IMG/VR virus record: IMGVR_UViG_3300043406_000030
Location: 1 to 51,736 of that record
From: a virus
Taxonomy: Duplodnaviria > Caudoviricetes
Length of the DNA stretch: 51,736 nt
Strand: one strand, 5' to 3'
This document shows, piece after piece, positions 1-46,663 of this stretch. The position numbers and the translations under genes were made by a program. The notes under the pieces are model-generated. The model was not told where the DNA came from, did no database searches, and worked only from the letters and a program-made list of their open reading frames with translations. Numbering within the stretch: position 1 is the first letter of the stretch; every line of letters begins with the position of its first letter.

Positions 1-227
1 ACACTCCTGGCACCACAGGCGTCACGATGTCTACGGACTTGCTGAACGTGCGCGGCGACATTGCTGCGACCGGCGCTGCAGCCCGATGCGTCGATCTTCG
101 CCTCAACGGCAAGAGCAACAGTTTCCTTGAGTTGACGATTTCAGATCACGTGTTCGGAATGGCAACATAATTTAAGGAGTTTTCAATGTCAAGCGGTCCT
201 TTTGATTCTGGTAGTTTTGGTGATCTT
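1..227. repeat. Terminal overlap, copy 1 (circular assembly)
   Basis: Identical to 51510-51736 except G100 vs A51609; falls inside genes, so it is an assembly overlap rather than a biological DTR. Confidence 0.95.
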
Positions 228-1106
228 CTCGACAAGAGAATCACCAAACTGTTTTATGACGAACTGAGCCAACTTCCTGAGCGTGTCAGCGAGTTCTACT
301 CTATGGAGAAATCGTCCGATTCGTTCGAGAAGTGGTCCGGCGTTGGCGAACTTGGAGATTTCTCTGAGTTCAATGGCTCTGTCAACTATAGCTCCCAATC
401 GCAGGGCTATGACGTAACCGCCGAACACAAGGTTTTCGTCAACGGCTTGCAGGTCACTCGTCAGATGTATGACGATGATCGGCACGGCATCTGGGAACGC
501 AAGGCTCCTGGTCTTGCGAATTCCTATTACAGGAAGCGCAACGAGCATGCCTCACGTGTCTTCAATTATGCGTTCAGCAATGACACGTATTTCTACAACA
601 ACAGCGAGGCCGTGCCGCTCTGCAGCGACAGCCACACGACAAACTCCGGCGCGTCTACAGCAGTCGGGTTTGACAACTTGACCACAGCCGGGTTTAGCGC
701 AACCGCGTTGTCCGCGCTGCGCACACAGATGCGGCAGTTCCGTGGCGACATCGCCAACAGGATTTCTGTCATGCCTGACAGGCTGATCTATCCGATTGAG
801 CTTGAGGACAGGGTTGAGGAAGTCTTGAAGTCTCAGAAAGATCCTGGCAGCGCCAACAACACCTATAACCCGCAGGGGAACGGTCGTTGGACAGGCACTG
901 CTTGGGAGTATCTGACTGACGCAAATAACTGGTTCATGACAGACTCCAAGAACATGAAGCAGTGGCTCATCTGGTTTGATAGGACTCCTCTGGAGTTCGG
1001 CAAGGCTGAAGAGTTTGACAGCTTCATTGCGAAGTGGCGTGCATACTGCCGCTACTCATACATGTGGGTCAACTGGCGCTGGATCGCTGGCGCTGAGGTA
1101 GCGTAG
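186..1106 (+). CDS. Major capsid protein (HK97 fold, Mu gpT-like family)
   Basis: 306 aa; AAGGAG RBS; pattern E..W.G.GE...F.E..G.V.Y...QGY...H..F..GL.VTR.MYDDD and P.RL..P..L; lies downstream of scaffold and decoration genes. Confidence 0.85.
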   Translation: MSSGPFDSGSFGDLLDKRITKLFYDELSQLPERVSEFYSMEKSSDSFEKWSGVGELGDFSEFNGSVNYSSQSQGYDVTAEHKVFVNGLQVTRQMYDDDRHGIWERKAPGLANSYYRKRNEHASRVFNYAFSNDTYFYNNSEAVPLCSDSHTTNSGASTAVGFDNLTTAGFSATALSALRTQMRQFRGDIANRISVMPDRLIYPIELEDRVEEVLKSQKDPGSANNTYNPQGNGRWTGTAWEYLTDANNWFMTDSKNMKQWLIWFDRTPLEFGKAEEFDSFIAKWRAYCRYSYMWVNWRWIAGAEVA

Positions 1107-1119
1107 TCTACACTCCGGG

Positions 1120-1196
1120 GCACTCGTAGCTCAGTTGGTAGAGCAGCGGTTTTGTAAACCGCAGGTCGCCGGTTCAATTCCTGGCCGGGTGCTCCA
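1120..1196 (+). tRNA. tRNA-Thr(UGU)
   Basis: Cloverleaf: GCACTCG/CGGGTGC acceptor, GCTC/GAGC D arm, GCGGT-TTTGTAA-ACCGC anticodon arm, GCCGG-TTCAATTC-CTGGC T arm (8-nt loop), encoded CCA. Confidence 0.92.
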
Positions 1197-3286: not shown

Positions 3287-4321
3287 ATGGCTTTTCCGTT
3301 TCTATTTGAATCGAATTTTGAAGGCGGGACAAACGCAGAGTGGGACAGCGAAACAGACACCGAGGGTGTCCTAAACATTCGCCACTATTCGAGCCTCGCA
3401 AAAGAGGATGCGTCGAAAGTTGGCCCCATTGCCCCGTGGCGTGGCGCGTATTGCGCCGAGTGGTTTTTAACTGGCGATACCTCTGACCATACCCTGATTG
3501 AAGGCGACCTTGACATCGCAGACGATGTGACGCGCTATACCAGGTTTATGCTATTCCTCGGCAAAGACTTGACCGGCGTGACAGACATTTTTAACATCTT
3601 CGAGCTGCAGGGAACTGCTGACGCGGTCGAAGCTGCCATCGGACTCCGCATCACGACAGGCGCGTCCGTCGTCGAAATCGGCATCGGGCAGACGGCTCCA
3701 GCGACGTTTGCGACACAGCCGCTGCACAAAGGACGTTGGTACACCATTGAATTGAAAACGCTGTGTGACACTGCCGGTGCAGGCACTTCTGACTTGTATG
3801 TAGACGGAGCCTTGGTGCAATCTATTACGACCATCACGAATACTGCAATTCTTCGCGGCGTGCTTGGCACACAAAACACGCTTTCGACGACGACAGGACA
3901 CCTGTACATTGACGCCTTTGCGTTTGACGATGCTCGATTGTATCCTGCGCGCGATCGCTTTCCGGTGACGCAGATCCTGACGAAAACAGGGCATGTCTTT
4001 GTCGGGCCTGGGTGGATCGAACTTGTCGCCATTCAGTCGGCAGCCGGGTCGGTGATTTGTTACGACACCGACACAGCAAACACCGACGCGGCAGACCAGG
4101 TTGTAGATCTGGATCTTGCGCGAGGGTTTGCGACCTACGAGGGTGGTGCGTATTTTGCGCGAGGGTGTTACGCAGTGCTATCTGGATCCAACCCGCGCAT
4201 CGAAGTGAAGCTGCTGACCAGCAACGCTGACCGGCGCAAGTTTGGCCCACACGCCTATGGAAGCACAGGCGCTATTCGTCAATACGGGTACAAGAGAAAG
4301 GCGAGGCCCCAGAATGTGTAA
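3287..4321 (+). CDS. Putative structural protein: lectin/polysaccharide-lyase-like beta-sandwich plus C-terminal jelly-roll-like domain
   Basis: F.SNFE.G....W N-terminus, GRWY.IEL...LYVDG...YID.F pattern; C-terminus resembles those of 4314 and 41123. Confidence 0.55.
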   Translation: MAFPFLFESNFEGGTNAEWDSETDTEGVLNIRHYSSLAKEDASKVGPIAPWRGAYCAEWFLTGDTSDHTLIEGDLDIADDVTRYTRFMLFLGKDLTGVTDIFNIFELQGTADAVEAAIGLRITTGASVVEIGIGQTAPATFATQPLHKGRWYTIELKTLCDTAGAGTSDLYVDGALVQSITTITNTAILRGVLGTQNTLSTTTGHLYIDAFAFDDARLYPARDRFPVTQILTKTGHVFVGPGWIELVAIQSAAGSVICYDTDTANTDAADQVVDLDLARGFATYEGGAYFARGCYAVLSGSNPRIEVKLLTSNADRRKFGPHAYGSTGAIRQYGYKRKARPQNV

Positions 4322-4865
4322 ACGTCACGCAATAGGTCTGGGGGCGTTGCTGTTCCTTGTACTGATACTTGCATTGCCGGGGTTCTCTGAAGCGGGGTAC
4401 AGCGCAACTGGAACTGGCGGGTGTGTAGCGACCGCCGCTGCCCCTTCTATCACGGAGGGCGCGCCAGCTCAAGCGTCTTGCGACTTGAACGCCAACGGCA
4501 GAGTCACGCTCGGAACCTGTTTCGGCGGCGACTCGCATTGTGTGAGCACCGATCCTGACAGCTATCTGCGAGTCAGAACACACACGACCCCAAGCGCCAG
4601 AGTGACATCGGATACACAGATCAAGGCATCTGCCGGCTGGGTGAGTCACCTGACATGCATGCCGACTGACGCCGCAGCCACTGCTGGCACAATTATTGTC
4701 TACGACAGTCTCACCGAAACTGGCACGGTTTTGCAACAGTTTGACGTGCAAGCATTCGCGTATGTTTACCCTATCGTTCTCCCGATCATGGCTGTCGCGT
4801 CTACTGGAATTTATCTAGGATTTACGACGACTGCCGACATGGCTTGCACGGTGTTCTATAAATGA
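4314..4865 (+). CDS. Signal-peptide protein, spike/decoration-like
   Basis: Start reassigned to ATG 4314: MCKRHAIGLGALLFLVLILALPGFSEA; C-terminal QIKASAG...IIVYDS...GIYL domain. Confidence 0.65.
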   Translation: MCKRHAIGLGALLFLVLILALPGFSEAGYSATGTGGCVATAAAPSITEGAPAQASCDLNANGRVTLGTCFGGDSHCVSTDPDSYLRVRTHTTPSARVTSDTQIKASAGWVSHLTCMPTDAAATAGTIIVYDSLTETGTVLQQFDVQAFAYVYPIVLPIMAVASTGIYLGFTTTADMACTVFYK

Positions 4866-5683
4866 TTCGCGTATGGCTGATCGCCTTGTTGATCGTATTA
4901 GTCGCCTGTCCTTCGTGGGCTGCTATCGTGTTTGTTGGGTCACAGACCGGCTCGTTTCTCGGCACCAACTCTAACCAGACCATAAACTTTGCGCTCACAG
5001 GTGGGACTGATGCAGCTCCGCTTGCTGATGATTTTGTCATTATCACTTATTGCTATGGGGGCATCGCAGATGGCGCATTAATCGTGGACGCGCCCGACAA
5101 CACAGACTACACGCTGTTTGGGACAGAGCAATACCGCGACGATACCTCTGATGTGAACATGCGTACAGCCTATCGTGTCATGCCTGGCACGCCTGAGACG
5201 CAATTCATTCTAGGTGAGACTGGCGCGGGCGGCTCAGCAAGCACCAACAACGGCGCTGCCTATACGGTGTTTGTGTTTCGTGGTGTTCATGCAACACCAT
5301 TGGAGCAAGCCGTACAACAGGGCGTGGGCTTTGACACAATGCTAGTCAATCCTGGTGGCATCACCCCAACTACAGCGGGTACTTACATCTATGTGGCGGG
5401 GTGTGGTGCATTGTCCGGCACAGGTGGTACCTATACACAAGGTGATTTGACTGGGTTCATTACATCGACAGCTGCTGATACAGTAGACGCCAATATCGGC
5501 GCGGGCTATCTGGCCTGGACCGCTGGTGCCTATAACCCTGCAACATTTGGCGGTGGTGGGACAGATACTATTCAAGCGTCCTACGCCTGGATGATTGTGG
5601 CACTGGCCCCAGCAGCAGACGTTGCCGGGCCTGGCGTGAGCGGAAACACTGGCGCATTGATGTTATTGGGGGTGGAGCGATGA
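4862..5683 (+). CDS. Signal-peptide beta-rich protein
   Basis: MIRVWLIALLIVLVACPSWA|AIVF; ends GALMLLGVER; ATGA-coupled to next gene. Confidence 0.75.
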   Translation: MIRVWLIALLIVLVACPSWAAIVFVGSQTGSFLGTNSNQTINFALTGGTDAAPLADDFVIITYCYGGIADGALIVDAPDNTDYTLFGTEQYRDDTSDVNMRTAYRVMPGTPETQFILGETGAGGSASTNNGAAYTVFVFRGVHATPLEQAVQQGVGFDTMLVNPGGITPTTAGTYIYVAGCGALSGTGGTYTQGDLTGFITSTAADTVDANIGAGYLAWTAGAYNPATFGGGGTDTIQASYAWMIVALAPAADVAGPGVSGNTGALMLLGVER

Positions 5684-6597
5684 TACGTATACTTGGGCTC
5701 ATCGTGGGGATGCTGTGTTATGCGCCGTTCGCTCAGGCCGCAGTCTTCTGGGACGACGAGATGGAAGGCACCACCTCAGGCGAGTTTTACTTTCAGACCT
5801 ATTACGATCAAGGCACCTACCTCATCGACACGTCGGTGAAGTTCAGCGGCACGGCATCAAAGCGTGTACGGTTTTTCCGCCCTGGCGGCGCAGTCGAAAC
5901 CTGCGATGTCACGCAGGCTGAGTTTAACGCTGGGCAACAATGCGGTGGTGAAGTGGGGCGGAGTTTCACGGCAAGCGCGGACGTGTACACGCGCAGTTAT
6001 TTCATGATGAGCGGGTCGAGTACGCCGCTGACTGCCCCTGCTGCGAACTGCCTGACGGGGGCACCGACAGATGCTCTGGGCAACTGTCTTTTTAAAAGTT
6101 CGACGCTCAGTTCAACGAAAATGCAGAAACGCCAATCCGCCGTAAACAGCGCGTTCACTGAGCAAAACATTCGCGGTTGGTGGCAGATAGGGAAGACTGG
6201 CGGAACAAACTTCATGATGTCAACTGAGCATGTGCCGACCTATAACTCGACGACCGATGTTCCGTTTGCGAATATTCAGTTACAAAGTAACCGCTGGTAT
6301 TGCATCGAGACACACGAAAAAGTCAACACGGGTGGGCTTGCAAACGGTATCGCGCAAGCCTGGGTGGACGGCGTGGAGGTACTGAACCGTACCACGGTAA
6401 CATGGCAACGTGCTCCAAGTTCCGCGACGCCTGGTAACTATTTATGGAATCAACTCGCACTCATGCGACAAAACGGGTTGGGTTATTTTTGGTGGGATCG
6501 CGTCGCAGCAGGAGACGCGAGAATCGGCTGTCTTGGTACGCCTTCGCCAACAGACATCACAAATCCAAACCCCCCAACTAATTTTCAGGCACAATGA
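5680..6597 (+). CDS. Signal-peptide polysaccharide-lyase/lectin-fold protein
   Basis: ...PFAQA|AVFWDDEME; NRWYCIE...AWVDG...WWD pattern; ends with FN3-like stub DITNPNPPTNFQAQ. Confidence 0.7.
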   Translation: MIRILGLIVGMLCYAPFAQAAVFWDDEMEGTTSGEFYFQTYYDQGTYLIDTSVKFSGTASKRVRFFRPGGAVETCDVTQAEFNAGQQCGGEVGRSFTASADVYTRSYFMMSGSSTPLTAPAANCLTGAPTDALGNCLFKSSTLSSTKMQKRQSAVNSAFTEQNIRGWWQIGKTGGTNFMMSTEHVPTYNSTTDVPFANIQLQSNRWYCIETHEKVNTGGLANGIAQAWVDGVEVLNRTTVTWQRAPSSATPGNYLWNQLALMRQNGLGYFWWDRVAAGDARIGCLGTPSPTDITNPNPPTNFQAQ

Positions 6598-8912
6598 TAC
6601 TGATTAAAACTCTCCTGGTCCTATGCATGCTGGTTGTCCCGGTCTCAAGCTGGGCCGCTATCGCGTTTGTGTCGCAGACCGATGCAACGGCTGCTGAGAA
6701 TGTGGCGAGCGTCACCTATAGCCAGGTCGTGTCGGCTGGATCTGATCGAGCCTTGTACGAGTGCATTACCTATCGGCAAAACGGTGGCACAAATAAAACT
6801 GTTTCATCGGTAGTATTTAATAGCAACGAGTCGTATACGCACATACGTACTGATACACAATTATCTGGCACGAACATCTGGTTTAACACATCGTTGTGGC
6901 GGCTGGTTGCTCCCACTGTTACGACCGCCAACGTAGTCACAACCTTTAGTGGAACAGTGAGCCGAAATATAGGCGTGAGCGGATCGCTGCTTACCGGGGT
7001 CAGCCAATCAAGTCCAGGTGATTCTAACGCGGGAAGTGGAGGCGTCGGCACAACGGCATCGGCAATTATCACGACGGTAGCAGATAATGCCGCAATCATT
7101 GGGTGTTTTCTTGGGCGTGGAAATGCCGGGCTGACTGTTGGCTCTGGCGAAACGGTACGAACAGACCGTATTATCGGCAACGATATTGATGGAGTGCTCG
7201 TGTCTACGTTGATACCAAAGACCCCAGCGGGAGCGCATACCGTAGACGCAACGCAGAGTTCAGCAGAGGAGTGGGTAGTCAGCGCGGCGTCTATAACCCC
7301 GAGTGGCGGCAGTGACCCTGCACCAGCAGAGAATGGACTTGTTAGTCTCAGTTGGACCAACGGCACGGACCCTGGCAACCCATCAAGCGGAATCGCAAGC
7401 ACATCAATTCGGCGCTGTGCCGGTGCGAGTTGTACGCCGCTGAATGTGCTCGCAACAATTACCTACCCCGTTGCGGCCTATCAAGATACCACTGTTTCCA
7501 TTAACACAACGTACGGCTATAACGCGTACCATACGGACAACGTAGGACTTCCAAGCAGCAGCACCGCGACCGCCTACGTCACCACATCGGCCACGCCGCC
7601 GACAGAGGCTCCACAGATTCTCAGCGCGGTAGCTGATGCGACGGGCGCAGATCTCGGCTATGGCTCAACGCCGCCAACAGAAGTAGAAGTCACCACGTTT
7701 ACCACCACGCAGGTTGTATCGGACCAGAAATATCCCATTGCCTCATTTCCAGGTGGCCGCTTTACGCAAACGTGGCTAGACGGACTGCAAGGGGCGTGCT
7801 TCTTTGCCGTAGGGTCAACCGGCGTCACGAACACCGACCCGCTCTATTACCGTTGCGTGAATCTTACGACAATCGTTGGGTCACTTGACGAATCCCCGCC
7901 CATCATCTCAAATTGTCAACCTACGACCAATCTGGCTGCTGGCACCACATCGTTTGATTTCTCGTGCCAAGTCAACAAGCCGTCGCTTGCTCGATTCAGC
8001 ACGACAGACGGCACGTATGCGTCGATGTCAAGCCAGATGACGCTGAACGGTTTGACGTTAACAGGTACGCAAACAGGGTTGACGAATGGCAGCACGACGA
8101 TTGTCTATGTGCGCGGGGCCTACTGCGACACGTTTGACACTGACTGCTCAGCCCTCCACGAAGTCGCGAGCAGCACAGCCGTCACGCTCACGGTAAATTC
8201 TGGCGGAGATACCACGCCGCCTGGGAATGTCGCGAACCTGGCCTGTACGGCAATTGGCAACGCTGTTGAATGTACCCACGACAGCGCGACTGACGCTGTG
8301 GTGTATCGGGTCTTTTTGTCAACCGGAGCCTGCTCGACGTATACAGCAGCGGGCGACAATGTTGCTACCAGCTTTACGTTGAACAATTTGGCCTTCAGCA
8401 CGGTGCATTGCATCAAGGTCAAAGCCCTCGATGTTGCAAACAATCTCTCCGCCGCATTCAGCAACACTGAAACGGAAACGACATCAGGGCAACCCAGCAG
8501 CGGCATTGTGCCAGATATGCTTGATTTTGCGGTCACTGTTGGTGGATCGGCAAGTTTGATTACCTCATGGCAAGCACAAGGCAGCGCGAGTGGGGGTTTG
8601 CTGTTTGCGAACATTGAGCGATGTCAAGTCGCAGCAGGGCAGCAAGATTGTGCAAATTTCCAAGTCATCGTCACAAACTATGCTGGCAACTCACTGCAAG
8701 CAAGTCTGACGCCAGATACGCGGTATTGCCTACGAGGGAAACATTCAGACGGCATCGTGGGTGTATCCGTCAACTATACCGCCAGCGTGTGCGCGACGAC
8801 GCAAGACACTGGGCTTGATGCCCCTAGCCCTGCGCTGCCATTCTCCGCAAGTCGTCCAGTTCCGTCAGCGCCACGACCTGTTCCTTCAGTCGCGCGACCC
8901 AAAAGACCGTAA
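6594..8912 (+). CDS. Signal-peptide multi-domain FN3/Ig-like protein
   Basis: ...VSSWA|AIAF; FN3 signatures (VSLSW...YQDT.V....YGY; DTTPPGNVANL...Y.VF...VKALD.A.N.S); paired Cys; RPVPS tandem repeat at the C-terminus. Confidence 0.75.
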   Translation: MILIKTLLVLCMLVVPVSSWAAIAFVSQTDATAAENVASVTYSQVVSAGSDRALYECITYRQNGGTNKTVSSVVFNSNESYTHIRTDTQLSGTNIWFNTSLWRLVAPTVTTANVVTTFSGTVSRNIGVSGSLLTGVSQSSPGDSNAGSGGVGTTASAIITTVADNAAIIGCFLGRGNAGLTVGSGETVRTDRIIGNDIDGVLVSTLIPKTPAGAHTVDATQSSAEEWVVSAASITPSGGSDPAPAENGLVSLSWTNGTDPGNPSSGIASTSIRRCAGASCTPLNVLATITYPVAAYQDTTVSINTTYGYNAYHTDNVGLPSSSTATAYVTTSATPPTEAPQILSAVADATGADLGYGSTPPTEVEVTTFTTTQVVSDQKYPIASFPGGRFTQTWLDGLQGACFFAVGSTGVTNTDPLYYRCVNLTTIVGSLDESPPIISNCQPTTNLAAGTTSFDFSCQVNKPSLARFSTTDGTYASMSSQMTLNGLTLTGTQTGLTNGSTTIVYVRGAYCDTFDTDCSALHEVASSTAVTLTVNSGGDTTPPGNVANLACTAIGNAVECTHDSATDAVVYRVFLSTGACSTYTAAGDNVATSFTLNNLAFSTVHCIKVKALDVANNLSAAFSNTETETTSGQPSSGIVPDMLDFAVTVGGSASLITSWQAQGSASGGLLFANIERCQVAAGQQDCANFQVIVTNYAGNSLQASLTPDTRYCLRGKHSDGIVGVSVNYTASVCATTQDTGLDAPSPALPFSASRPVPSAPRPVPSVARPKRP

Positions 8913-8930: not shown

Positions 8931-9944
8931 ATGTCTTCGACGACAGAAGTTCGTACCTTCAGCGATATCTATACAGAGATCCTGAACAAGATGCGCCAAC
9001 CAACAAACATCACGTCGATTATCGAACAGGCAAAGCGTTACGCAAACACGGGCCTGCATGACATGGTGTTTGGATTTGAGTATCAACTGCCGTGGCTTGA
9101 GCGTGACGCTGTTCTTCTTACAAGGGCAGCGTACACGACAGGCACCGTTTCGATAGACCGAGGTAGCACAACGCTGACTGGGGCGAGCACGTTATGGACC
9201 ACGACGGACGACTTTTCTATTGCCAATGCCAGGGCATCAGGCAAGATCAGCTTCGGCGACGGAAACGTGTACGGCATCGACGAGGTCGCGTCGGCAACGT
9301 CCATCACGTTGCTAACGCGCTACGTCGAAGACGATGACCTGGCAGCAGGAGCGTCGTATACGTATTTTGAAGACGAATACGCGCTGGCATCAGACTTCCT
9401 GAAGCCGATTGATTATCGCAGGTTTACTGCCGCGTACAACATCCCGCTTATTGGTCGCAACGAGTTTCGTAGGATGTACCCGCGTCCGAACATGGGCGGC
9501 ACGCCGAGAGTCGCAACGCTGATTGACAAGACGTTCGGTGCGTCCACGACGCCTGTAACCCACGTGCAGTTTTACCCGTATCCTACTACGGTGATGCAGA
9601 TTCCGTACTCGTATATCACGAAGAATCTTGCCGTCTCGTCTGCAGGCGTGGAGCAAGTCTCCATGTCGGCAGACAGCGATGAGCCGATCCTGCCAAACCA
9701 GTATCGAAAAGCGATCGTGTCGTTTGCGATTTGGCAGTGGTATCGAGACAAGAAAGACGACACGCGAGCCGATGCGGCGCACGCGGATTATATCGACGAT
9801 GTCGCGCGCATTGTGAACGACAGGAACATCGGCGCGCCCACCACAGCGCGCCTGCAGCCTCGTGTCCAAGGGTTTCGCGTTTATAACGGTTCCGCAGGCA
9901 GGCGATTCTCCCACAACAACTCCTTTGATGAGTTTAGGTCGTAA
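8931..9944 (+). CDS. Head-tail adaptor / tail tubular protein A-like
   Basis: Helical N-terminus, EYAL..DFLK, FYPYP...I.YSY, D.P.LP..Y..AIV motif; precedes the nozzle-like gene. Confidence 0.65.
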   Translation: MSSTTEVRTFSDIYTEILNKMRQPTNITSIIEQAKRYANTGLHDMVFGFEYQLPWLERDAVLLTRAAYTTGTVSIDRGSTTLTGASTLWTTTDDFSIANARASGKISFGDGNVYGIDEVASATSITLLTRYVEDDDLAAGASYTYFEDEYALASDFLKPIDYRRFTAAYNIPLIGRNEFRRMYPRPNMGGTPRVATLIDKTFGASTTPVTHVQFYPYPTTVMQIPYSYITKNLAVSSAGVEQVSMSADSDEPILPNQYRKAIVSFAIWQWYRDKKDDTRADAAHADYIDDVARIVNDRNIGAPTTARLQPRVQGFRVYNGSAGRRFSHNNSFDEFRS

Positions 9945-11522
9945 ATGTTACAAGCAAGCAAATGGTTGACACACAGATTTGGTGGAGGATGGGCGACGGA
10001 CTTTGGCCCGACGGCGTACACTTCGCCCGATCAAAACGGGCAATTCCAAGTCCCGTTTCTGCGTCAAGCCCGCAATCTTGTGTACGAGTTTGACGGAGGC
10101 ATTCACAAGGCGCCTGGGACCGCAAAGCTCAACGCTTCTGCGTTAGAGTCTGGCGCAACGGTACGTGGCCTGACTGACTACTGGCGGCAAGGCACGTCCG
10201 ACTCGCCGACGCAGCGGCGCGTGATCCATGTGGGCACAAAGGTCAAGTATGACCAAGCCGACGGAACGTTTATTGACATGCTCACCGGCATGAGCAGCAC
10301 GTCGATTCCAAACTACGAAACCTTTGATGACTTGTTGCTCATCTCGTCGTCTGATCCGTCAGACTTGCCGAGGTCATGGGACGGGACCACTGCGCAAAAT
10401 CTTGCAGGGTCGCCGCCAAACTTCTCATTCTGCGTCACGCACGAAAACCACGTGTTTGCCGCAGGCGTGTTTACGAATCCGTCGCGCCTGTACTACTGTG
10501 TACCGTTAAACCCAGAAGACTGGACCAACACCGGCAGCGGGTCGATCGACGTAGACCCGAACGACGGCGACATGATTACCGGCGTCATCAGTCACAAGGG
10601 CAACCTGTGGGTATTCAAAGGACCGAATAAGGGCAGCATTCATCGTATCTCAGGCACGTCCGCAGCGACGTGGACGAAAACTCGTTTCATAAAGGGGCTG
10701 CCTTGTCCGTGGATTAACTCGATTTTCGCGTTCGGTGACGACATCGGGTTTATCTCGACAAACGGATCAGTCCATAGCCTTAAAGCCACTGACGCCTATG
10801 GCGACTACAATCAAGCGTGGCTCTCGTACCCGATTAACAAATACTTGCAAGAGAATCTGAACAACAGCAGAGCACGTTACTTTTGCGCAGCTACAGACCC
10901 GAATCGCGGCTACGTGTGGATTGGCATTACTCCGTCAGGCCAAACCACAAACACACGTTTCCTGATTATGGACTACAGGTTTCTGTCGCAACAAGAAACC
11001 TACCCGAGGTGGTCATATTGGGACAGCAGGGCCTTTGCGTGTATTTCGCTTGTTCGAGACACGCAGCGCCCAAGGCTGATGGCTGGCGGGTATGACGGCT
11101 TTGTCTACAAGCTCGATCAAACCTCGCGTACCGACTCTGGTACCGCAATCAACATGGTCGCAGAAACTCCGTCGCTGACCTACGGCGACGAGTGGATGCT
11201 GAAGAATCTTGCCGATGCCGGCGTGTCTATCAACGCGCTAAACAACAACACGTTTACGCTGACGTGGACACTGGACGGCGTCAATAGTTACAGCATTACA
11301 CAGACGCAAGGAGCGACAGGAGCCGTGTTTGATGTCGGAGTGTTTGATACCGCTGTGTTTGGCGGCCAAGCATTCGTGCCAAGGTTCTTTGGCATCGAAA
11401 ACGGTGGCGACTTTCGCGCGATCTCGTATCAGTTTTCAGAAACAGCAGACGACAGCGATTTAGAAATTCACAGTTTCATGGCAAAGATCACCCCGTCTGG
11501 TGAGAGCACGGAGAATTCTTAG
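9945..11522 (+). CDS. Tail nozzle / stabilization protein (P22 gp10 / tubular protein B-like)
   Basis: 525 aa with beta-propeller-like repeats (H.NHVFAAG...SRLYY, DGD.ITG....GNLWVFK); position after the adaptor. Confidence 0.65.
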   Translation: MLQASKWLTHRFGGGWATDFGPTAYTSPDQNGQFQVPFLRQARNLVYEFDGGIHKAPGTAKLNASALESGATVRGLTDYWRQGTSDSPTQRRVIHVGTKVKYDQADGTFIDMLTGMSSTSIPNYETFDDLLLISSSDPSDLPRSWDGTTAQNLAGSPPNFSFCVTHENHVFAAGVFTNPSRLYYCVPLNPEDWTNTGSGSIDVDPNDGDMITGVISHKGNLWVFKGPNKGSIHRISGTSAATWTKTRFIKGLPCPWINSIFAFGDDIGFISTNGSVHSLKATDAYGDYNQAWLSYPINKYLQENLNNSRARYFCAATDPNRGYVWIGITPSGQTTNTRFLIMDYRFLSQQETYPRWSYWDSRAFACISLVRDTQRPRLMAGGYDGFVYKLDQTSRTDSGTAINMVAETPSLTYGDEWMLKNLADAGVSINALNNNTFTLTWTLDGVNSYSITQTQGATGAVFDVGVFDTAVFGGQAFVPRFFGIENGGDFRAISYQFSETADDSDLEIHSFMAKITPSGESTENS

Positions 11523-12791
11523 ATGGCTATCTCGCAAGTATACACTGCCGTACCGCTCGACGTGATCTCTGCGGCTCGATGGAACAACGAGTTCGGCAAC
11601 GTGTACAACAACGGAACTGCGCTGGCGTTTCCGTTGACGCAGAGCGTGTCGTTCGCGGGCTACTCCGTCAGACTCGACGCGGCAGGCGCAACGTCCATTG
11701 CGTCCACATCGTCCGCAAGCGTCGTGCTAGCTCCTGGTGCCAAGACAGGCACCCCGAACGTTGGCGGGTCGGTGCTTACGGTGCAACAGCAGACGTTTAC
11801 CGACACAGCCACGTCAGCATCAGGCACCGCTTCGGCATACGCGAGCGTCGGGCTTGACATCCCGTCCGTTGCGGCATCAAACGCGAATGTCACAGTAACC
11901 GACGCGGCCACGCTGTATATTGCCAACGCGCCCGCTGCCAGCACGAACGTTACGCTGACAAATGCCTACGCGTTGTGGATTGACGAAGGCACGATACGGA
12001 CAGACGGCAAGGTGTACGGCACACTTGTGCATGCCGGACACATCGAAGGTCTGCTGTTTTCAAACAACGGCAGCGACGCAACAAATGACATCGACATCGC
12101 GGTAGGGTTAGCGGCAAGCACGCACGCGACGCCTGCAAGCAGAAGATTGCTGACACTGGCAAGCGCGGTCACGAAGCGGCTTGACGCGTCGTGGGTCACT
12201 GGCACAAATCAAGGAGGGCTGTCGTCTTCGCTGTCCATATCAAACACCGATTACTTTATCCATCTAATACAGGTTGCCGGAGTTGTAGACGTTGGCTTTG
12301 ATACAAGCCGGACTGCGGCAAACCTGATCGCCGATCACGGAGCGACAGCGTACCGGCGCATCGGATGGATACGTCGAGCCTCCAACACCATTGTTCCGTT
12401 TACTACCACAGGCCAGGCAGGTGGAGGAATCCTATACTTATGGACCACGCCCCCGCTTGATGTAGACTTAGCGGCCACACTCACCACGTCTCGACGCTCT
12501 GACGTGATTTCTGTTCCACTTAGCGAGAAAGTGTTGGCGCATATTACTGTCAGCATGCTTGACGCGGCGATCTTTACCGCACGAGTGTGTAGCCCATCTG
12601 AAACGGACGCAGCCCCTTCGTCTACGGCTTCGCCGCTGCAGAATATCAAAGGCCCTGTTGCGGGCCAGTACGAAGGCACGCAGCTTACTGTTCTGACAGA
12701 CACGAGTGGGCAAATATCAGCACGCTGCACCGTGGCGACGATGGATCAATACAAAGTGATGACGGACGGGTTTGAATGGAGCCGGCAATGA
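11523..12791 (+). CDS. Tail fibre protein 1
   Basis: AARWNNEFGN virion-anchor N-terminus; GL...NN..DATNDIDIA.G and YRRIG motifs common in fibres. Confidence 0.7.
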   Translation: MAISQVYTAVPLDVISAARWNNEFGNVYNNGTALAFPLTQSVSFAGYSVRLDAAGATSIASTSSASVVLAPGAKTGTPNVGGSVLTVQQQTFTDTATSASGTASAYASVGLDIPSVAASNANVTVTDAATLYIANAPAASTNVTLTNAYALWIDEGTIRTDGKVYGTLVHAGHIEGLLFSNNGSDATNDIDIAVGLAASTHATPASRRLLTLASAVTKRLDASWVTGTNQGGLSSSLSISNTDYFIHLIQVAGVVDVGFDTSRTAANLIADHGATAYRRIGWIRRASNTIVPFTTTGQAGGGILYLWTTPPLDVDLAATLTTSRRSDVISVPLSEKVLAHITVSMLDAAIFTARVCSPSETDAAPSSTASPLQNIKGPVAGQYEGTQLTVLTDTSGQISARCTVATMDQYKVMTDGFEWSRQ

Positions 12792-13128: not shown

Positions 13129-14370
13129 ATGTCTTTATCACAGATCTATACAGCCGTCACTGGACACACGATTACCGCGGCCCGGTGGAACAACGAGTTT
13201 GGAAACATTTACACAAACGGAACAGATGTCGCGTTCCCGTTGACGAAAGCCGTGTCGCTGGCTGGGTACACACTAACCGTTGACTCTGCCGGCGTGTCTA
13301 CGATTACGTCTCCGTCGAATACTGGGTTTTTGCTCACCGTCGGCAACAAGTCTGGCGCACCCGGCGCGAACGGAAACCTGGCGACATTGACTGCCAGCAC
13401 GTTTACCGATACAGACACGGCGGCTGCCGGCACGGCTGCCTTGTGGACAGGGTTGTCAGTTCGCACGCCTACACTTGCCGCATCCGCCGCCAACGTCGTT
13501 ACCACGCTTGCTGCTACGGTATATGTCGAAGGCCCTCCGACTGCAAGCACAAATGAGACACTGACGACGCCGTGCGCGATCTATGCAGCAGGACACGTGG
13601 TCAGCGCAAAAGGGTCTGACATTGCGTCGGCCTCGTCAATCGCTGTCACCCACGGATTTCATGATGTCACCGGCACGACAACTATAACAGCTGTCACCAA
13701 GGCGGCGGCTGCCGGCACGACGTTTCGACTGCGGTTTACCGGGGCAGGGTTAAACATTACGTATAATGCTACGTCGATGATTACTCCCTGGGCAAAAGAC
13801 TATCGCACAGTGCCGAATGAAATCTTGGAATTCTTTTCGCTTGGCAGTGGAAACTACCAATTCGTCTCCCTGAACGGTCCTCCCGAGCGCGTCGGCACGA
13901 CGATTGAAGCCAACAGCACCACGACACCTGCGGGATATTTGCCAGAAGACGGGGCGGCAGTGTCGCGCACGACGTACGCCGGCTTGTTTGCAGAAGTCAG
14001 TACCACGTACGGCGTTGGCGACGGCACAACGACCTTTAACGTGCCCCTGTCTCTCGGCCTTGTTGCGATTAACCGAGATCCAGCAAACTCCGTCATTACG
14101 TCCGCATCGACAAACGGAGCCAATGCGGCCACGCTAGGAGGTAAAGGAGGCGCGCAGACACATACGCTGACGACTGCAGAACTTGCGTCCCATACGCACA
14201 CACAGCGAGGTAACAGTAACGCAGGCGATGCAGGCGGCACGTCTGGTCTGAGCTTTAGAGGCGCCACGGCGAACGACGGAAACGCCGGCGCAACCGCATC
14301 TGCTGGCAGTGACACCGCGCACAACAACACGCAGCCCTGGATTGCGAAAGCCAAGTACATTCGGTTCTGA
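13129..14370 (+). CDS. Tail fibre protein 2 with tail-collar domain
   Basis: N-terminus paralogous to 11523; PAGYL..DG.AVSRTTYA.LF...STTYG.GDG.TTFNVP collar motif; H.N.QP...YI C-terminus. Confidence 0.85.
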   Translation: MSLSQIYTAVTGHTITAARWNNEFGNIYTNGTDVAFPLTKAVSLAGYTLTVDSAGVSTITSPSNTGFLLTVGNKSGAPGANGNLATLTASTFTDTDTAAAGTAALWTGLSVRTPTLAASAANVVTTLAATVYVEGPPTASTNETLTTPCAIYAAGHVVSAKGSDIASASSIAVTHGFHDVTGTTTITAVTKAAAAGTTFRLRFTGAGLNITYNATSMITPWAKDYRTVPNEILEFFSLGSGNYQFVSLNGPPERVGTTIEANSTTTPAGYLPEDGAAVSRTTYAGLFAEVSTTYGVGDGTTTFNVPLSLGLVAINRDPANSVITSASTNGANAATLGGKGGAQTHTLTTAELASHTHTQRGNSNAGDAGGTSGLSFRGATANDGNAGATASAGSDTAHNNTQPWIAKAKYIRF

Positions 14371-19115: not shown

Positions 19116-19424
19116 CTACTTGAACGTGTGAATCGGGCTACAGTTGAAGTACGTCTTGTCTTGCACGCCGTTGCCGTGCATATCCTCAATATGGACATCT
19201 TTACAGAGACTGACAAATTCAACCGACCCATTCCAGAAGTCGTGTAGCGTCGTCGTCAAGACATAGTAATCAACCTTTGCAAACGGCGTGGTTCCAACGC
19301 CAGTTTGCCCGTTACGGGTTTCGACTTCATGTGTAATGCTAGTACACGCAGACAGCGCCGCCAAGCTACAGAAAACTAACGCTAACATTGACATCTTCAG
19401 TGACAGCGAAAGTGTACCGCCCAT
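19116..19424 (-). CDS. Putative lipoprotein
   Basis: AAGGAG RBS; hydrophobic stretch ending LSAC (lipobox-like). Confidence 0.55.
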   Translation of the reverse strand: MGGTLSLSLKMSMLALVFCSLAALSACTSITHEVETRNGQTGVGTTPFAKVDYYVLTTTLHDFWNGSVEFVSLCKDVHIEDMHGNGVQDKTYFNCSPIHTFK

Positions 19425-33658: not shown

Positions 33659-33850
33659 TTACTGTATCACGGTGGTAATGCAGTTACCCCCCGATGAACA
33701 GCATGTCATGGTCGTGAGTACTGAGCCGTTCGATAGAATCACGGTGTTGTACGTACATGCCGCGTGCGCGTTTCCGCTTGCCAACAAGATGAGCAATGCG
33801 ACAATTGCGCACAGTGCCACAAAGCCCGCTATGAGTTGTAAGTAATACAT
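33659..33850 (-). CDS. Small secreted Cys-rich peptide
   Basis: AAGGAG RBS; signal peptide ending AHA|A; 33-aa mature part with 4 Cys. Confidence 0.55.
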   Translation of the reverse strand: MYYLQLIAGFVALCAIVALLILLASGNAHAACTYNTVILSNGSVLTTMTCCSSGGNCITTVIQ

Positions 33851-37837: not shown

Positions 37838-38023
37838 ATGTGGATACTGTTGTTGATTATTTTCGGCGTGGATGGCGATACCTCGGCGGTAGTCGAGAAG
37901 TACGTGACGCAAAAAGAATGTGAAGACACGCGTGACTACGTCAGCGCGGAGATGCGCAAAGCCTACGCAGAAGACACCCAGCGGTTTGAATTACACTGTC
38001 GATTCTATGGAGCAAAAATATGA
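37838..38023 (+). CDS. Small protein with hydrophobic N-terminus
   Basis: GAGG RBS; MWILLLIIF...T.KEC...C. Confidence 0.6.
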   Translation: MWILLLIIFGVDGDTSAVVEKYVTQKECEDTRDYVSAEMRKAYAEDTQRFELHCRFYGAKI

Positions 38024-38376
38024 AGGCATTTGTTGTGCTATTGTGCATCGGCGTGTGGCTGTGCGCGGCGAGTCTCACCAGCGCCGCGACGCTTGAATGG
38101 GACCGCAACACAGAACCCGACATGAAAGATTATCAGGTCTGGGCCTGCTTTACGGCAAACTGCATCGTCATCAAGTCTGCGGCGAACTTGCAACCAGGTC
38201 CCGTAAATCAACCCGCCGCTGGCGTCAATCCTTCCTTCGTCATGGACCTGACGAACAAAGAGGGCGCGGTTGCGGTAAGCGCCCGCGACCAGGCCTTGAA
38301 CGAATCAGGGCTTAGTGTGCCAGTCCCTTTCGACAAACGGGCACCGGCGGTGCCTGCGAACCCGACTCTTCGGTGA
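38020..38376 (+). CDS. Signal-peptide single FN3-like domain protein
   Basis: ...LTSA|ATLEWD.NTEPD..DY.VW...AVSA.D...NES..S; ends APAVPANPTLR. Confidence 0.8.
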   Translation: MKAFVVLLCIGVWLCAASLTSAATLEWDRNTEPDMKDYQVWACFTANCIVIKSAANLQPGPVNQPAAGVNPSFVMDLTNKEGAVAVSARDQALNESGLSVPVPFDKRAPAVPANPTLR

Positions 38377-38431: not shown

Positions 38432-39853
38432 ATGATGCGGAACATGATCGCGGCCTTGTCCGTGGCGGTCTGCCTCACAAGTTTGTGGGCGGTCCCGGCA
38501 CAGGCCACACAGCGAGAAGTGGGGAGCGGGCAAACCTACACGACGATTCAAGCCTGCATCAACGCAATGGCGGCCGGCGATGTGTGCAATGTTCATGCGG
38601 GCACCTACACCGAACAGTTGACGCTCAGCAGCGGCACGTCTGGAAATCTCAAGACGATCCAACGAAACGGGAGCGATAGCGTCATTGTCACAAGCACCTC
38701 CTCGCCAGTTGTCTCCTCAAGCAATAATGACTACTGGAAACTTGACGGGCTGGACATCCGCTATACCGGATCAGGAGCAAACCCGTCTGTCATCTTGGAT
38801 ACCTACGACGGCAGCAGCAGCGCGGTCAACGGGTGGACGATCACGAATTGTATTCTTACGCTTGGCGGTACGCCGTCTGGCGACGGGTTTATTGTCTATA
38901 TTGCCGATGCGGGTAACGCGACATTCTCCAACAACGTCACGTCCGTGACGGCAACATCTGGCACGCATGACGGATGGGAATTTCTTGATGCGACAAATCT
39001 AACCATCTCTGGAAATACCCTATCAGGCATCGCGTCAACATCCGGCACACTGGAAGACGGCCTTGTCACAAGCGGGGCGAACCTGACGATTACGAACAAC
39101 ACGCTCAGTGACGGGTGGAGCTACGACAATCACCCCGACGCGATTGTTGTGCAAGGTACGGACTATGGCTCATCAACAAATGGCGTCGTCATCAGCAACA
39201 ACACGATTAAGAACTTCACGCAGGGCATCTACATTGACTGCTTTAGCGCTGATTGCTTAAACATCTCGATCTACAACAACGTCGTGTATGAACAAGACCC
39301 GTTTCAATACGGCGGTTCAACGACAACAATGAACTGCTTGGTGATTGACAGCGAGAACGTCGGCACGATCACGGCAGTGGTTTACAATAACACCTTTGAC
39401 TGTCAGCAACTGAGCGTGTACTACCTGCGCGCCAAAGCCGCGAACACCCTTACGATTAAAAACAACATCATTACGCTGTCCATCTCAAGCCTGGAAAGCA
39501 CAGGGACTGTGACAATGGACTACAACTATTATGTCTACGCCGCATGTGGAAGCAAGATACTGGATTACGGCGGGGCTAATTATTCATTTACTGGCTTCCA
39601 GGGAATAGGGAAAGAAGCCAACGGGTTGTGTACGACAAGCGCCACTCTCTCAATGCCCTCGACCTACATTCCAGACTCTGATGCAAATTCAATCGGGCGC
39701 GGGACTGACCTGTCAGGCGTGTTTACGACAGATCGAGCCGGAACAACGCGAGCAGCGCCGTGGGATATTGGGGCATACGAGTACGTCTCTGGCGCAGCGG
39801 TGGCAAGCCCGCCGCCGACGACAGGTGCCCTTACAATCTTATTACTAAGGTGA
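38432..39853 (+). CDS. Signal-peptide right-handed beta-helix protein
   Basis: Start ATG 38432; ...PAQA|; Y.TIQ......AGD...VH.GTY.E, parallel beta-helix I.NN repeats, WDIGAYEY. Confidence 0.8.
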   Translation: MMRNMIAALSVAVCLTSLWAVPAQATQREVGSGQTYTTIQACINAMAAGDVCNVHAGTYTEQLTLSSGTSGNLKTIQRNGSDSVIVTSTSSPVVSSSNNDYWKLDGLDIRYTGSGANPSVILDTYDGSSSAVNGWTITNCILTLGGTPSGDGFIVYIADAGNATFSNNVTSVTATSGTHDGWEFLDATNLTISGNTLSGIASTSGTLEDGLVTSGANLTITNNTLSDGWSYDNHPDAIVVQGTDYGSSTNGVVISNNTIKNFTQGIYIDCFSADCLNISIYNNVVYEQDPFQYGGSTTTMNCLVIDSENVGTITAVVYNNTFDCQQLSVYYLRAKAANTLTIKNNIITLSISSLESTGTVTMDYNYYVYAACGSKILDYGGANYSFTGFQGIGKEANGLCTTSATLSMPSTYIPDSDANSIGRGTDLSGVFTTDRAGTTRAAPWDIGAYEYVSGAAVASPPPTTGALTILLLR

Positions 39854-44965: not shown

Positions 44966-46663
44966 ATGGATATCAACCCGACGCAAGATTTTTCGCTGCT
45001 GACTGACGACGAGCTGCTTGCGTACACCAGCAATGTCCTTAACCTACAAGACAAGGACCGTAAAGAATTTGCACTACGATACTACAGCCCAACAAATCCT
45101 ACCGTGGGGAGAATCCACGATCTATGTTGCGGGACAATTGGAATCTTTGGCGGTAACGGTTCAGGAAAGACCGAGCACGCCCTTGTTGAAGGGATTATCC
45201 GATGTACCGGAATTGTCCCAGAGTCGCTGAAAGAAACGTATCCACGTACGAAGTTGCGCGGCCCTATCCAGATGCGCGTGGTCTGCGAATCGTTAACGAC
45301 TGTGTTGGAACCTATTATTTTACCGAAGCTCCAATACTGGCGATGGTCCGGGCTGCTGCCGCAAGGCGGAAGTCAAGGGCATTGGGGCTGGATTCCAAAA
45401 CACTGCCTCATCAACGGCGACTGGAAAAAGAGTTATAGTTCGAAGTTGCGCATTCTGACGGTGTTGTTTTACGACGAGGCAGGCAAGGTTGCCGGGCAAT
45501 CGACTATCCAGTTTATGTCGTATGACCAGGACGCCTCAGACTTTGCGTCAGGTGACTTGCAGTATTGTTTGCACGACGAACCGCCTAAGTACGACATCTG
45601 GAAAGAGAACCGGGCACGCATCATGCGAGGCGGACAGGGCTCGACAATGGTGTTGTCGATGACGTGGCCCGATAATCCTGCAACGCCTGTTGACTGGATT
45701 TTTGACGAAGTGTTTGACAAGGCTATCCCTGGCAAGCATCGTGACCCTGATGTTGAAGTGATTAACATCTTCAGCACGATGAACAAGCACCTTGACCAAG
45801 AGGAGATCACAAAGCGTGCCGCGCAGATGACGCTGACGGAACGCAATTCTCGCATATTCGGTATGCCGGTTCGATTTAGCAACCGTATTCATCCCGACTT
45901 TACCGATCAGGAAAAGTCGTGGTGTTACGAATGCGGTAAGATTGTGCTGCTCGACGTGGCCGGCAAGTGTGGAGATTGTCACAGCGAGTATGTGTCGCAA
46001 TACACGAACGTCGAACATTGCGAAGTCAATTCGCGCTATCCGGTTATCAACCTGCTTGACCCGCACCCTCGCAAACCGCATTTCTTAGCATGGGTGCAAG
46101 TCACGCCGAACGAAGACTATGAAGTCGTGGCAACTCGACAGGTTGAAGGTGGAGCAGAGGACGTGCGAGACGTTGTGAGAGAAGTTGAAGCCGACCTGCG
46201 GTGCGTGCAGGTTGTACGCATCATGGACCCAAACATGGGAGCCTCGCCTAGCGGCGCGAAGCGAGAGCTTACGTGGCAGCGCGAGTTCGACAACGTCGGC
46301 TTGCACTATGACCTTGGCGACGACAGCGGAGTCGGGCGGGCACGTTTGAATACGTTTATTAAACCTGACTCGCAGTTTATGCGGGCACGGTTTCGCATAG
46401 ACCCGTCGTGCGAAGACGCAATCTTTCAGATGAAGCGGTACGTGTGGAGCGACCACAAGAATGCTGAGAACAAAGATGTCGCGCAAACACCGCTGCAGAA
46501 GCATGACGACTTCCCGACGTTGTTTAAGTACTTAATGAATTACCTTCCCACGAGCGGGAACATGGCTCCGCCGACTGTCAAGAGACAACGAGTAGACAGC
46601 TCCTATAGGACGCACGAAAGGGCAACGCATGCTGGACGATATGCCGCACGAGCAGGACGCTGA
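44966..46663 (+). CDS. terL: Terminase large subunit
   Basis: Walker A GGNGSGKT, Walker B CLHDEPP, coupling SMTW, nuclease LDPH, C-terminal DD. Confidence 0.92.
   Translation: MDINPTQDFSLLTDDELLAYTSNVLNLQDKDRKEFALRYYSPTNPTVGRIHDLCCGTIGIFGGNGSGKTEHALVEGIIRCTGIVPESLKETYPRTKLRGPIQMRVVCESLTTVLEPIILPKLQYWRWSGLLPQGGSQGHWGWIPKHCLINGDWKKSYSSKLRILTVLFYDEAGKVAGQSTIQFMSYDQDASDFASGDLQYCLHDEPPKYDIWKENRARIMRGGQGSTMVLSMTWPDNPATPVDWIFDEVFDKAIPGKHRDPDVEVINIFSTMNKHLDQEEITKRAAQMTLTERNSRIFGMPVRFSNRIHPDFTDQEKSWCYECGKIVLLDVAGKCGDCHSEYVSQYTNVEHCEVNSRYPVINLLDPHPRKPHFLAWVQVTPNEDYEVVATRQVEGGAEDVRDVVREVEADLRCVQVVRIMDPNMGASPSGAKRELTWQREFDNVGLHYDLGDDSGVGRARLNTFIKPDSQFMRARFRIDPSCEDAIFQMKRYVWSDHKNAENKDVAQTPLQKHDDFPTLFKYLMNYLPTSGNMAPPTVKRQRVDSSYRTHERATHAGRYAARAGR

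Follow-up and report, generated by a model that had tools for sequence, protein, structure and literature searches.

A mobile cassette of putatively exported lectin-like, lyase-like and FN3 proteins in the late operon of an uncultured SU10-like podophage

It is generally assumed that tailed phages assemble all their components in the cytoplasm, and that the parts with which they bind or cut glycans are mounted on the particle. What, then, are four consecutive genes with Sec-type leaders doing among the head and tail genes of such a phage? The question is raised by the IMG/VR virus record IMGVR_UViG_3300043406_000030, which we analysed over its whole length of 51,736 bases (hereafter, the window). 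Its completeness estimate is "complete", and it belongs to an uncultured SU10-like podophage for which no close cultured relative was found. The four genes, g4314, g4862, g5680 and g6594 (Table 1), all lie on the plus strand between capsid-side genes and the adaptor gene, and we refer to them as the cassette. An earlier note on this DNA had proposed an undescribed system in which adhesin-like parts fold oxidatively in the periplasm and then attach to virions or build a structure on the infected cell. The answer that we put first, with about even confidence that it is right, is that the cassette would be a mobile accessory module whose proteins are exported, stabilised by disulfides and directed at glycans of the host surface, and not a set of built-in virion parts. 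This proposal draws on the gene order, the leader-like N-termini and their conservation, the folds and families of the proteins, the movement of the cassette from one phage backbone to another, and the occurrence of cellular homologues within loci for polysaccharides.

The earlier description of four overlapping open reading frames (ORFs) with Sec-type leaders was borne out. We scored leaders by our own rules for the n-, h- and c-regions, combined with a comparison of homologues. Each cassette protein opens with one, two or three basic residues, followed by an uncharged hydrophobic stretch of 10-16 residues and a brief segment that ends in small residues at positions -3 and -1 (SEA, SWA, AQA and SWA). 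With a slash marking the predicted cut, g4314 begins with MCKRH, 16 hydrophobic residues and PGFSEA/G; g4862 with MIR, 12 hydrophobic residues and CPSWA/A; g5680 with MIR, 12 hydrophobic residues and PFAQA/A; and g6594 with MILIK, 10 hydrophobic residues and PVSSWA/A. Two genes elsewhere in the window, g38020 (c-region ending SLTSA/A) and g38432 (VPAQA/T), had also been said to carry leaders and exhibit the same pattern; features of the Sec/signal peptidase I type can be read directly in all six proteins.

Such N-termini are rare in this kind of DNA and clustered where present. Of the 804 ORFs with 100 or more amino acids (aa) in 56 capsid-related loci, 21 were flagged by a strict rule, and 16 of the 21 come from a single phage that has a series of leader genes of its own. 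In the window, the same rule flagged 4 of 49 ORFs, namely three cassette genes and 19116-19424 on the minus strand; it missed g4314, g38020 and g38432, for which a crude choice of ORFs picked other frames or starts. The adaptor, nozzle and fibre proteins of the window have no leader on inspection of their N-termini.

We regard it as very improbable that these N-termini are uncleaved membrane anchors or that translation starts downstream of them. In-frame GTG codons do lie three to five codons past the predicted cut in g4862 (codon 23) and g6594 (codon 26), which keeps alive part of an earlier concern about downstream starts, but neither is preceded by a motif like a Shine-Dalgarno (SD) site. 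SD-like sites occur upstream of the ATGs of g4314, g5680 and g38020, or three of the six. The g4862 leader also fits a lipobox (LVAC), but the lipobox Cys is not conserved in homologues, and leaderless relatives begin with Met at the predicted cut or at most two residues from it. In addition, the n/h/c pattern and the small -3/-1 residues are kept among homologues at 43-76% identity, with a conserved mature N-terminus immediately after them. The expectation that homologues keep their leaders held for g6594 (20 of 20) and for g5680 (58 of 69, where 8 of the other 11 are gene calls that start inside the leader); the picture is mixed for g4862 (22 of 40) and for g4314 (64 of the best 150). To judge from the sequences, the leaders look genuine and conserved, and export is well supported. 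Cys makes up 0.8-3.9% of the mature cassette proteins versus 0-0.95% of the capsid, portal, adaptor, nozzle and fibre proteins, and two leaderless proteins, g1408 and g40286, are Cys-rich too.

The distribution of the cassette bears on whether its products belong to the particle, as had been suggested. They appear not to, given that the cassette is not kept in place in the nearest relatives by particle genes and recurs with other capsids. Searches with tblastn gave no matches to g4314, g4862 or g6594 in the 56 capsid-related loci, many of which are short or end before the relevant spot. Four distinct relatives span this spot (L002/L003, L005, L009 and L011), and they have other genes or none there. 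The adaptor gene directly follows the g3287 homologue in L009 and L011. The nearest capsid relatives (L002/L003, 79% identity) keep g1408, g2500, g3287, the adaptor and the nozzle, with other leaderless ORFs before the adaptor. In L005, whose capsid protein is likewise 79% identical, g1408, g2500 and g3287 are kept and are followed by other leaderless ORFs; its locus has no adaptor or nozzle match.

By contrast, a metagenome scan with the g6594 family returned 15 loci, of which 7 were mapped, and the cassette was present alongside other capsid families. All four genes occur in the same order and with leaders in L192 and L194, and three or four of them in L193, L199 and L200. The capsids of the cassette-bearing loci belong to PF19821 (E 9.3e-58), PF20911 (E 7.6e-125) and, with a weak match, PF25209. 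Upstream of the cassette are capsid-side genes (L192, L194 and L199) or tail and fibre genes (L193 and L200). Because it is found under other capsid families and is absent from the capsid relatives, the cassette is, on this gene-context evidence, a mobile unit, and the places where it inserts are the borders between modules of late operons. Since it travels between particle types, a conserved docking site on the particle is unlikely.

Some of these borders adjoin lysis genes. The gene right after the g6594 homologue encodes Peptidase_M15_3 in L194 (E 1.9e-11) and Phage_lysozyme in L193 (E 1.4e-7), so that an endolysin gene directly follows the cassette in two of five mapped loci at Pfam's cut-offs. 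ORFs with hydrophobic N-termini, holin- or spanin-like by eye only, come directly after the g6594 homologue/endolysin in L194 or one ORF further on in L200. Moreover, no endolysin, holin or spanin is recognisable in the window by Pfam or PHROGs, and the lysis genes of L193, L194, L199 and L200 have no counterpart in it. These observations would fit an accessory role in lysis or release, in which an exported complex weakens the outer layer (matrix, sheath or outer membrane glycans). However, the end of the late operon is also the usual place for fibres, and a cultured Octadecabacter virus has a leaderless homologue between tail genes and a lysozyme gene. The cassette is not beside lysis genes in the window or in L192, and for the four proteins we found no lysis family in Pfam, PHROG or NCBIfam and no muralytic domain. 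A lysis role of this kind is decidedly unlikely in our view.

The mature parts are beta-rich, as the earlier note had it, and resemble lectins or lyases, with fibronectin type III (FN3) domains in addition. The putative lyase-like member is g5680, whose family profile aligns with the fungal protein Cip1 of Hypocrea jecorina (3ZYP, E 5.8e-7) from profile position 30 to 256 of 277 and, weakly, with a PL14-type alginate lyase (5GMT, E 0.012). Cip1 and the PL14 lyases (PF21294) are exported, as g5680 is predicted to be. The likeness to Cip1 extends over nearly the whole length and includes two Cys of Cip1, with which the invariant Cys208 and Cys284 of the g5680 family align. R105, K147, E210 and D273 are also invariant, the mature start VFWDDEME is almost so, and 21 of 69 homologues have a precomputed PF21294 match. 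Unlike the known proteins, g5680 is encoded by a phage in a late operon; the window protein itself falls under Pfam's cut-off, and its activity is putative. No close relatives were found in viral contigs with the single protein, and the profile added four weak loci. A lone homologue lies in a lambda-like phage contig (PF05876, PF05136 and PF05065). A complex prediction for g4862 (residues 21-273) with g5680 (21-305) scored 0.00, which is uninformative either way.

Cellular homologues of g5680 connect this fold with polysaccharide loci. Genes for asparagine synthase and glycosyltransferases are their neighbours in metagenome-assembled genomes that bear the titles Nitrospiraceae, Nitrospira and Thermodesulfovibrionales and in another whose title is only "uncultured bacterium" (L128). 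The neighbours in L134 further include a Polysacc_synt_3 flippase and Wzy_C, and there the g5680 homologue adjoins a leader-bearing right-handed beta-helix protein related to g38432. Bacterial exported enzymes that cut the cell's own polysaccharide are known: VexL is an exported enzyme that is encoded in a polysaccharide locus and degrades the polymer in the periplasm (PMC6003464), and WceF is an exported glycan-acting enzyme of a polysaccharide locus with a tailspike-like fold (PMC7949094). The cellular homologues of g5680 and g38432 sit in loci of this type. The difference is that VexL and WceF are single cellular enzymes, whereas the phage has a four-gene cassette of lyase-like, lectin-like and FN3 proteins. 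As a separate observation, the gene directly upstream of the g5680 homologue in a genome record titled Nitrospira sp. NFB02 (L132:6291-9149) encodes a protein of 952 aa in which eight "viral BACON" (PF19190) repeats are combined with an FN3 domain.

The second member, g4862, looks like a part of a tail. Its model (pLDDT 90.2) is a double jelly roll, and a Foldseek search of BFVD yielded 100 viral proteins at E<=1e-3, many of them named minor tail protein, from Mycobacterium and Gordonia phages. The fold is therefore like that of the receptor-binding modules of minor tail proteins and tail fibres. In Microcystis phage Mae-JY28, a g4862-type homologue heads a 625-aa protein, without a leader and with the match starting at codon 2 of the coding sequence. 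The homologue in Octadecabacter Antarctic BD virus 1 is gp22, beside tail genes; it too is leaderless, and the match starts 13 codons after the start of the coding sequence. What sets g4862 apart is that a Sec-type leader precedes the module, as it also does in 22 of the 40 close homologues. Among solved structures, it reaches Z<=5.6 to TNF/C1q-like lectins, receptor-binding heads of phage fibres and carbohydrate-binding modules, but these weak likenesses may reflect a common arrangement and no more. The sequence profile found nothing in the PDB, and Foldseek found only low-TM double-jelly-roll or bicupin matches there, leaving no firm solved relative.

The g4862 domain seems to have acquired or shed its leader repeatedly. 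In IMG/VR, a leader precedes it in 4 of 64 loci (two distinct genes), and otherwise it is nearly always leaderless, standing right after Met in proteins of 250-1,024 aa with a fibre-like repeat remainder or inside larger phage proteins. We built a tree of the mature domain with 33 rows, from which seven of the 40 homologues were excluded: P0102 and P0109, and also P0073, P0084, P0098, P0101 and P0107, in which the start-motif pattern was unmatched. On the best tree, the leader was gained or lost at least four times, and two of these changes are forced by supported branches; for example, the leader-bearing P0082 and the leaderless P0091 are sisters (SH-aLRT 96).

A Cys..Cys tail at the C-terminus is found in 16 of 22 leader-bearing members of the g4862 family and in none of the 12 leaderless members examined. 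Given that this tail is confined to leader-bearing proteins, it is consistent with proteins that fold in an oxidising compartment. The two tail Cys are missing from the window's own g4862. The tail consists of Cys, five residues, LLGVG and Cys. In comparison with PEP-CTERM or IPTL-CTERM, it lacks a basic end and does not reach the length of a helix. It has no Pfam or NCBIfam match at lax thresholds; one Atlas cluster of similar structure that carries IPTL-CTERM (score 0.80, TM 0.74) is a lead only.

The head domain of g6594 is related to g4862. Comparison of the two families by hhalign gave a probability of 96.7% (E 3.7e-10), in a stretch that covers g4862 residues 1-178 and starts in both leaders, which inflates the score. 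Beyond the head, the g6594 model (pLDDT 78.6) has five beta-sandwich (FN3/Ig-like) domains at residues ~250-735, and Foldseek matches it to tandem FN3/Ig proteins at E 7.9e-15 and weaker. The window protein has only PF09294 in Pfam (E 0.036), and the homologues P0125, P0126, P0128 and P0129 carry PF00041. The family invariably has the leader and the following AIAFVSQT (20 of 20), at 32-76% identity to the window protein (43-76% for 13 full-length members), and many homologues are on contigs of 31-66 kb. In Nitrospirota genomes, the head domain is also found at the end of ORFs that are 1,312-3,398 aa long (best E 1.1e-59). Within this phylum, the only one searched, 39 of 401 genomes matched g6594 at E<=1e-10, mostly via the generic FN3 part, and among the matches listed we saw neither a full-length g6594 match nor a prophage. 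Nitrospirota as the host is accordingly a lead only.

The remaining member, g4314, has a leader at residues ~1-27, a Cys-rich region with six Cys, and a conserved C-terminal domain of ~90 aa. Its family comprises 421 representatives at E<=1e-3, and homologues occupy the first place of the cassette in L192, L193, L194, L199 and L200. For one homologue, P0130, the nearest Atlas clusters are 87-100% viral. A local profile search of loci L001-L179 found the g4314-type domain in the window copy alone.

The tail-like folds invite the explanation that the cassette encodes virion appendages matured in the periplasm, which would fold oxidatively outside the cytoplasm and dock on finished particles at lysis. 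The match of g4862 to many phage minor tail proteins is in keeping with this explanation, as are its leaderless homologues that head repeat-rich, fibre-like proteins or sit inside large phage proteins. Heads of P22 and T3 can accept tails or spikes in vitro. The cassette also lies within a morphogenesis operon: the start of g4314 overlaps the end of g3287 by 8 nucleotides (nt), and the junctions g4314/g4862, g4862/g5680 and g5680/g6594 are 4-nt ATGA overlaps, as in translational coupling. On the other hand, the cassette is missing from the closest capsid relatives and present with other capsid families, the window's own adaptor, nozzle and fibres are leaderless, and BLASTP of 19 selected window proteins against each other revealed no docking module in common with the window fibres. 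We consider periplasm-matured appendages quite unlikely.

A different phage lineage is relevant to this explanation. In L021:11468-17381 (also L018, L020, L022 and L176-L179; capsid 37% identical), five consecutive genes with leader-like N-termini follow the capsid gene. They include an SU10 adaptor, whose PF24175 domain (E 7.9e-18) begins at residue 22, and a nozzle-like protein of 790 aa (BLASTP E 8.7e-5 to the window nozzle). We found no cultured relatives of these two proteins, only near-identical contigs. A local jackhmmer search recovered eight distinct adaptor-like proteins, and the leader-like end occurs in the L021 lineage only. The leader-like adaptor and nozzle keep the virion reading alive. 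It is conceivable, although we rate it as improbable, that tail-type parts are made outside the cytoplasm in both cases: cassette proteins would acquire disulfides as they fold in the periplasm, and would then either become part of released particles or build a phage-directed structure on the dying cell, and the L021 adaptor and nozzle would take the same route. If this were true of the latter, heads would be completed only after the compartments mix at lysis, and if proteins do join particles, tailed-phage assembly would have an extracytoplasmic branch.

Exported modules of the receptor-binding type could also act in superinfection exclusion or receptor masking. Lectin-like proteins derived from receptor-binding modules would then cover or modify the glycan that serves as receptor on the infected cell, and so prevent the adsorption of further phages or of progeny. 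In L200 and L073/L074, leader-bearing genes directly follow tail-fibre-like genes, and exclusion lipoproteins such as T5 Llp or Cor adjoin receptor-binding genes. This phage looks lytic, however, with no integrase seen in the window, and late expression would leave little time for exclusion. Four large proteins exceed the needs of known exclusion factors, and the lyase-like member suggests cutting rather than masking. We consider exclusion or masking quite unlikely as the explanation.

We prefer the accessory host-glycan reading because the cassette moves between unrelated particles and is missing from the nearest relatives, and because cellular homologues are encoded in polysaccharide loci. 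Under this reading, the host Sec system would export the four proteins late in infection, and signal peptidase would remove the leaders. The proteins would fold in the periplasm with disulfides and bind, perhaps cut, polysaccharide of the host surface or matrix, either in the periplasm, at the surface, or in the medium after lysis. The lyase-like g5680 might do the cutting, g4862 and the g6594 head could serve as lectin-like modules of the tail type, and the FN3 string of g6594 would be a stalk. The progeny might benefit by escaping and spreading through a polysaccharide matrix, or from the stripping or masking of receptor glycans on infected cells.

Several points weigh against the accessory host-glycan reading. 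The cassette genes are translationally coupled to structural genes, the g4862 fold is that of tail proteins and suits a virion role as well, and three of the four proteins are in mostly viral families (Atlas clusters 87-100% viral). The match of the window's g5680 to PF21294 (E 0.0044, 17.2 bits) is under the Pfam cut-off of 27. In a diderm, Sec leads no further than the periplasm, and we found no route across the outer membrane. The Nitrospirota matches come from a search of that phylum alone. Finally, the L021 core tail parts may indicate, as far as their sequences go, that a leader need not exclude a virion role in the wider group.

Sec-exported phage proteins are not new in themselves. Spanins, signal-anchor-release endolysins, lambda Lom and Bor, and T5 Llp are examples, and T4 antiholin RI (PMC8385771) and Kayvirus Tgl (PMC7150955) are reportedly exported in this way too. 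Like the cassette proteins, these are phage gene products with host export signals, and some are encoded in late or tail regions. They are, however, small lysis, exclusion or outer-membrane proteins, and none is a run of large fibre- or depolymerase-like proteins. Free soluble phage depolymerases, which degrade glycans and are released at lysis, act off the particle, as the cassette proteins would. To our knowledge, they are made in the cytoplasm and have no leaders, which distinguishes the cassette from them. In the literature searched, we found no description of leader-bearing fibre or depolymerase cassettes in tailed phages, in line with the earlier impression of an undescribed system. That the same kinds of module occur here with export signals, as a four-gene unit among unrelated phages, points to a second, off-particle way of dealing with host capsules and with the matrix of biofilms. 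Such proteins would have folds that stay stable outside the cell, and lysis would release them. If active, they would be a source of stable matrix-targeting lectins and enzymes, and the cassette could mark phages of matrix-embedded, hard-to-culture hosts.

Table 1. Positions of the cassette genes, the other leader-bearing genes and the particle genes in the window
Feature	Position	Strand	Properties
Capsid protein	186-1106		PF25209, E 2.3e-10; capsid of type PF25209/PF10124
g3287	3287-4321	+	344 aa, no leader; context gene, outside the exported set; PF14099 at E 0.0096 (under cut-off)
g4314	4314-4865	+	183 aa; first cassette gene; ATG inside ORF 4242-4865
g4862	4862-5683	+	273 aa; leader 1-20, two tandem jelly rolls ~21-252, short C-terminal tail
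g5680	5680-6597	+	305 aa; leader 1-20, then Cip1/PL14-like beta-jelly roll
g6594	6594-8912	+	772 aa; leader 1-21, head 24-234, disordered Pro/Arg-rich tail 747-772
Adaptor, SU10-type	8931-9944		PF24175, E 2.4e-5 (under Pfam's cut-off); PHROG tail families
Nozzle-like protein	9945-11522
g38020	38020-38376	+	118 aa; leader 1-22, small two-Cys domain; first gene of the + strand late block
g38432	38432-39853	+	473 aa; leader 1-25, probable right-handed beta-helix
Portal, SU10-type	46629-49115		PF23899, E 1e-20

Of the two leader-bearing genes outside the cassette, g38020 has no Pfam match, and its homologues keep the leader in L189, L190, L191 (two distinct proteins, since those of L189 and L190 are the same) and L199. 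g38432 resembles NCBIfam choice_anch_Q weakly (E 0.0013, under the cut-off) and is 29% identical over 292 aa to the leader-bearing L134 protein, which has PF13229 Beta_helix at E 3.4e-16. A viral contig, L122 (5904-10807), carries a variant cassette: leader-bearing proteins of 187, 293 and 761 aa are followed by a g5680-like domain and then by an FN3-like stretch. The start of the 187-aa protein resembles the g4314 family by eye, with no match in the local profile search, and the C-terminal part of the 761-aa protein is like g38432 (tblastn, 28% over 229 aa).

The earlier note also saw domains similar to those of the cassette in three proteins without signals. For g3287, this is correct, in that it has a jelly-roll segment in common with g5680 (BLASTP 1e-4), and homologues of g3287 are kept in the relatives L002, L003, L005, L008, L009, L011 and L012. 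No such similarity appeared for g40286, which hhalign compared with two cassette families, those of g4862 and g6594, at a probability below 1%, or for 41123 in the BLASTP comparison of the 19 selected window proteins.

We now note properties of the rest of the genome. The opposite strand encodes the phage's own DNA polymerase, primase and helicase. It also encodes two small proteins with export-type N-termini and no family match: the 102-aa product of 19116-19424, with a lipobox (LSAC), and the 63-aa product of 33659-33850, whose leader ends in AHA. Two fibre genes (11523-12791 and 13129-14370) are 50% identical across their first 152 residues and divergent beyond (BLASTP); this common part is likely a shared anchor. 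The second fibre has the tail-collar domain PF07484. The stretch 3′ of the capsid gene is a hotspot for accessory genes. In L002 (12293-13276) and L005 (12252-13067), an extra ORF of ~270-330 aa with no counterpart in the window lies between the g1408 and g2500 homologues, and it looks glycosyltransferase-like by eye. In the window, a tRNA-Thr gene (anticodon TGT; 1120-1196, plus strand) is located directly 3′ of the capsid gene; it matches the tRNA-Thr of Acinetobacter phage Acj9 at 91% identity over 56 nt.

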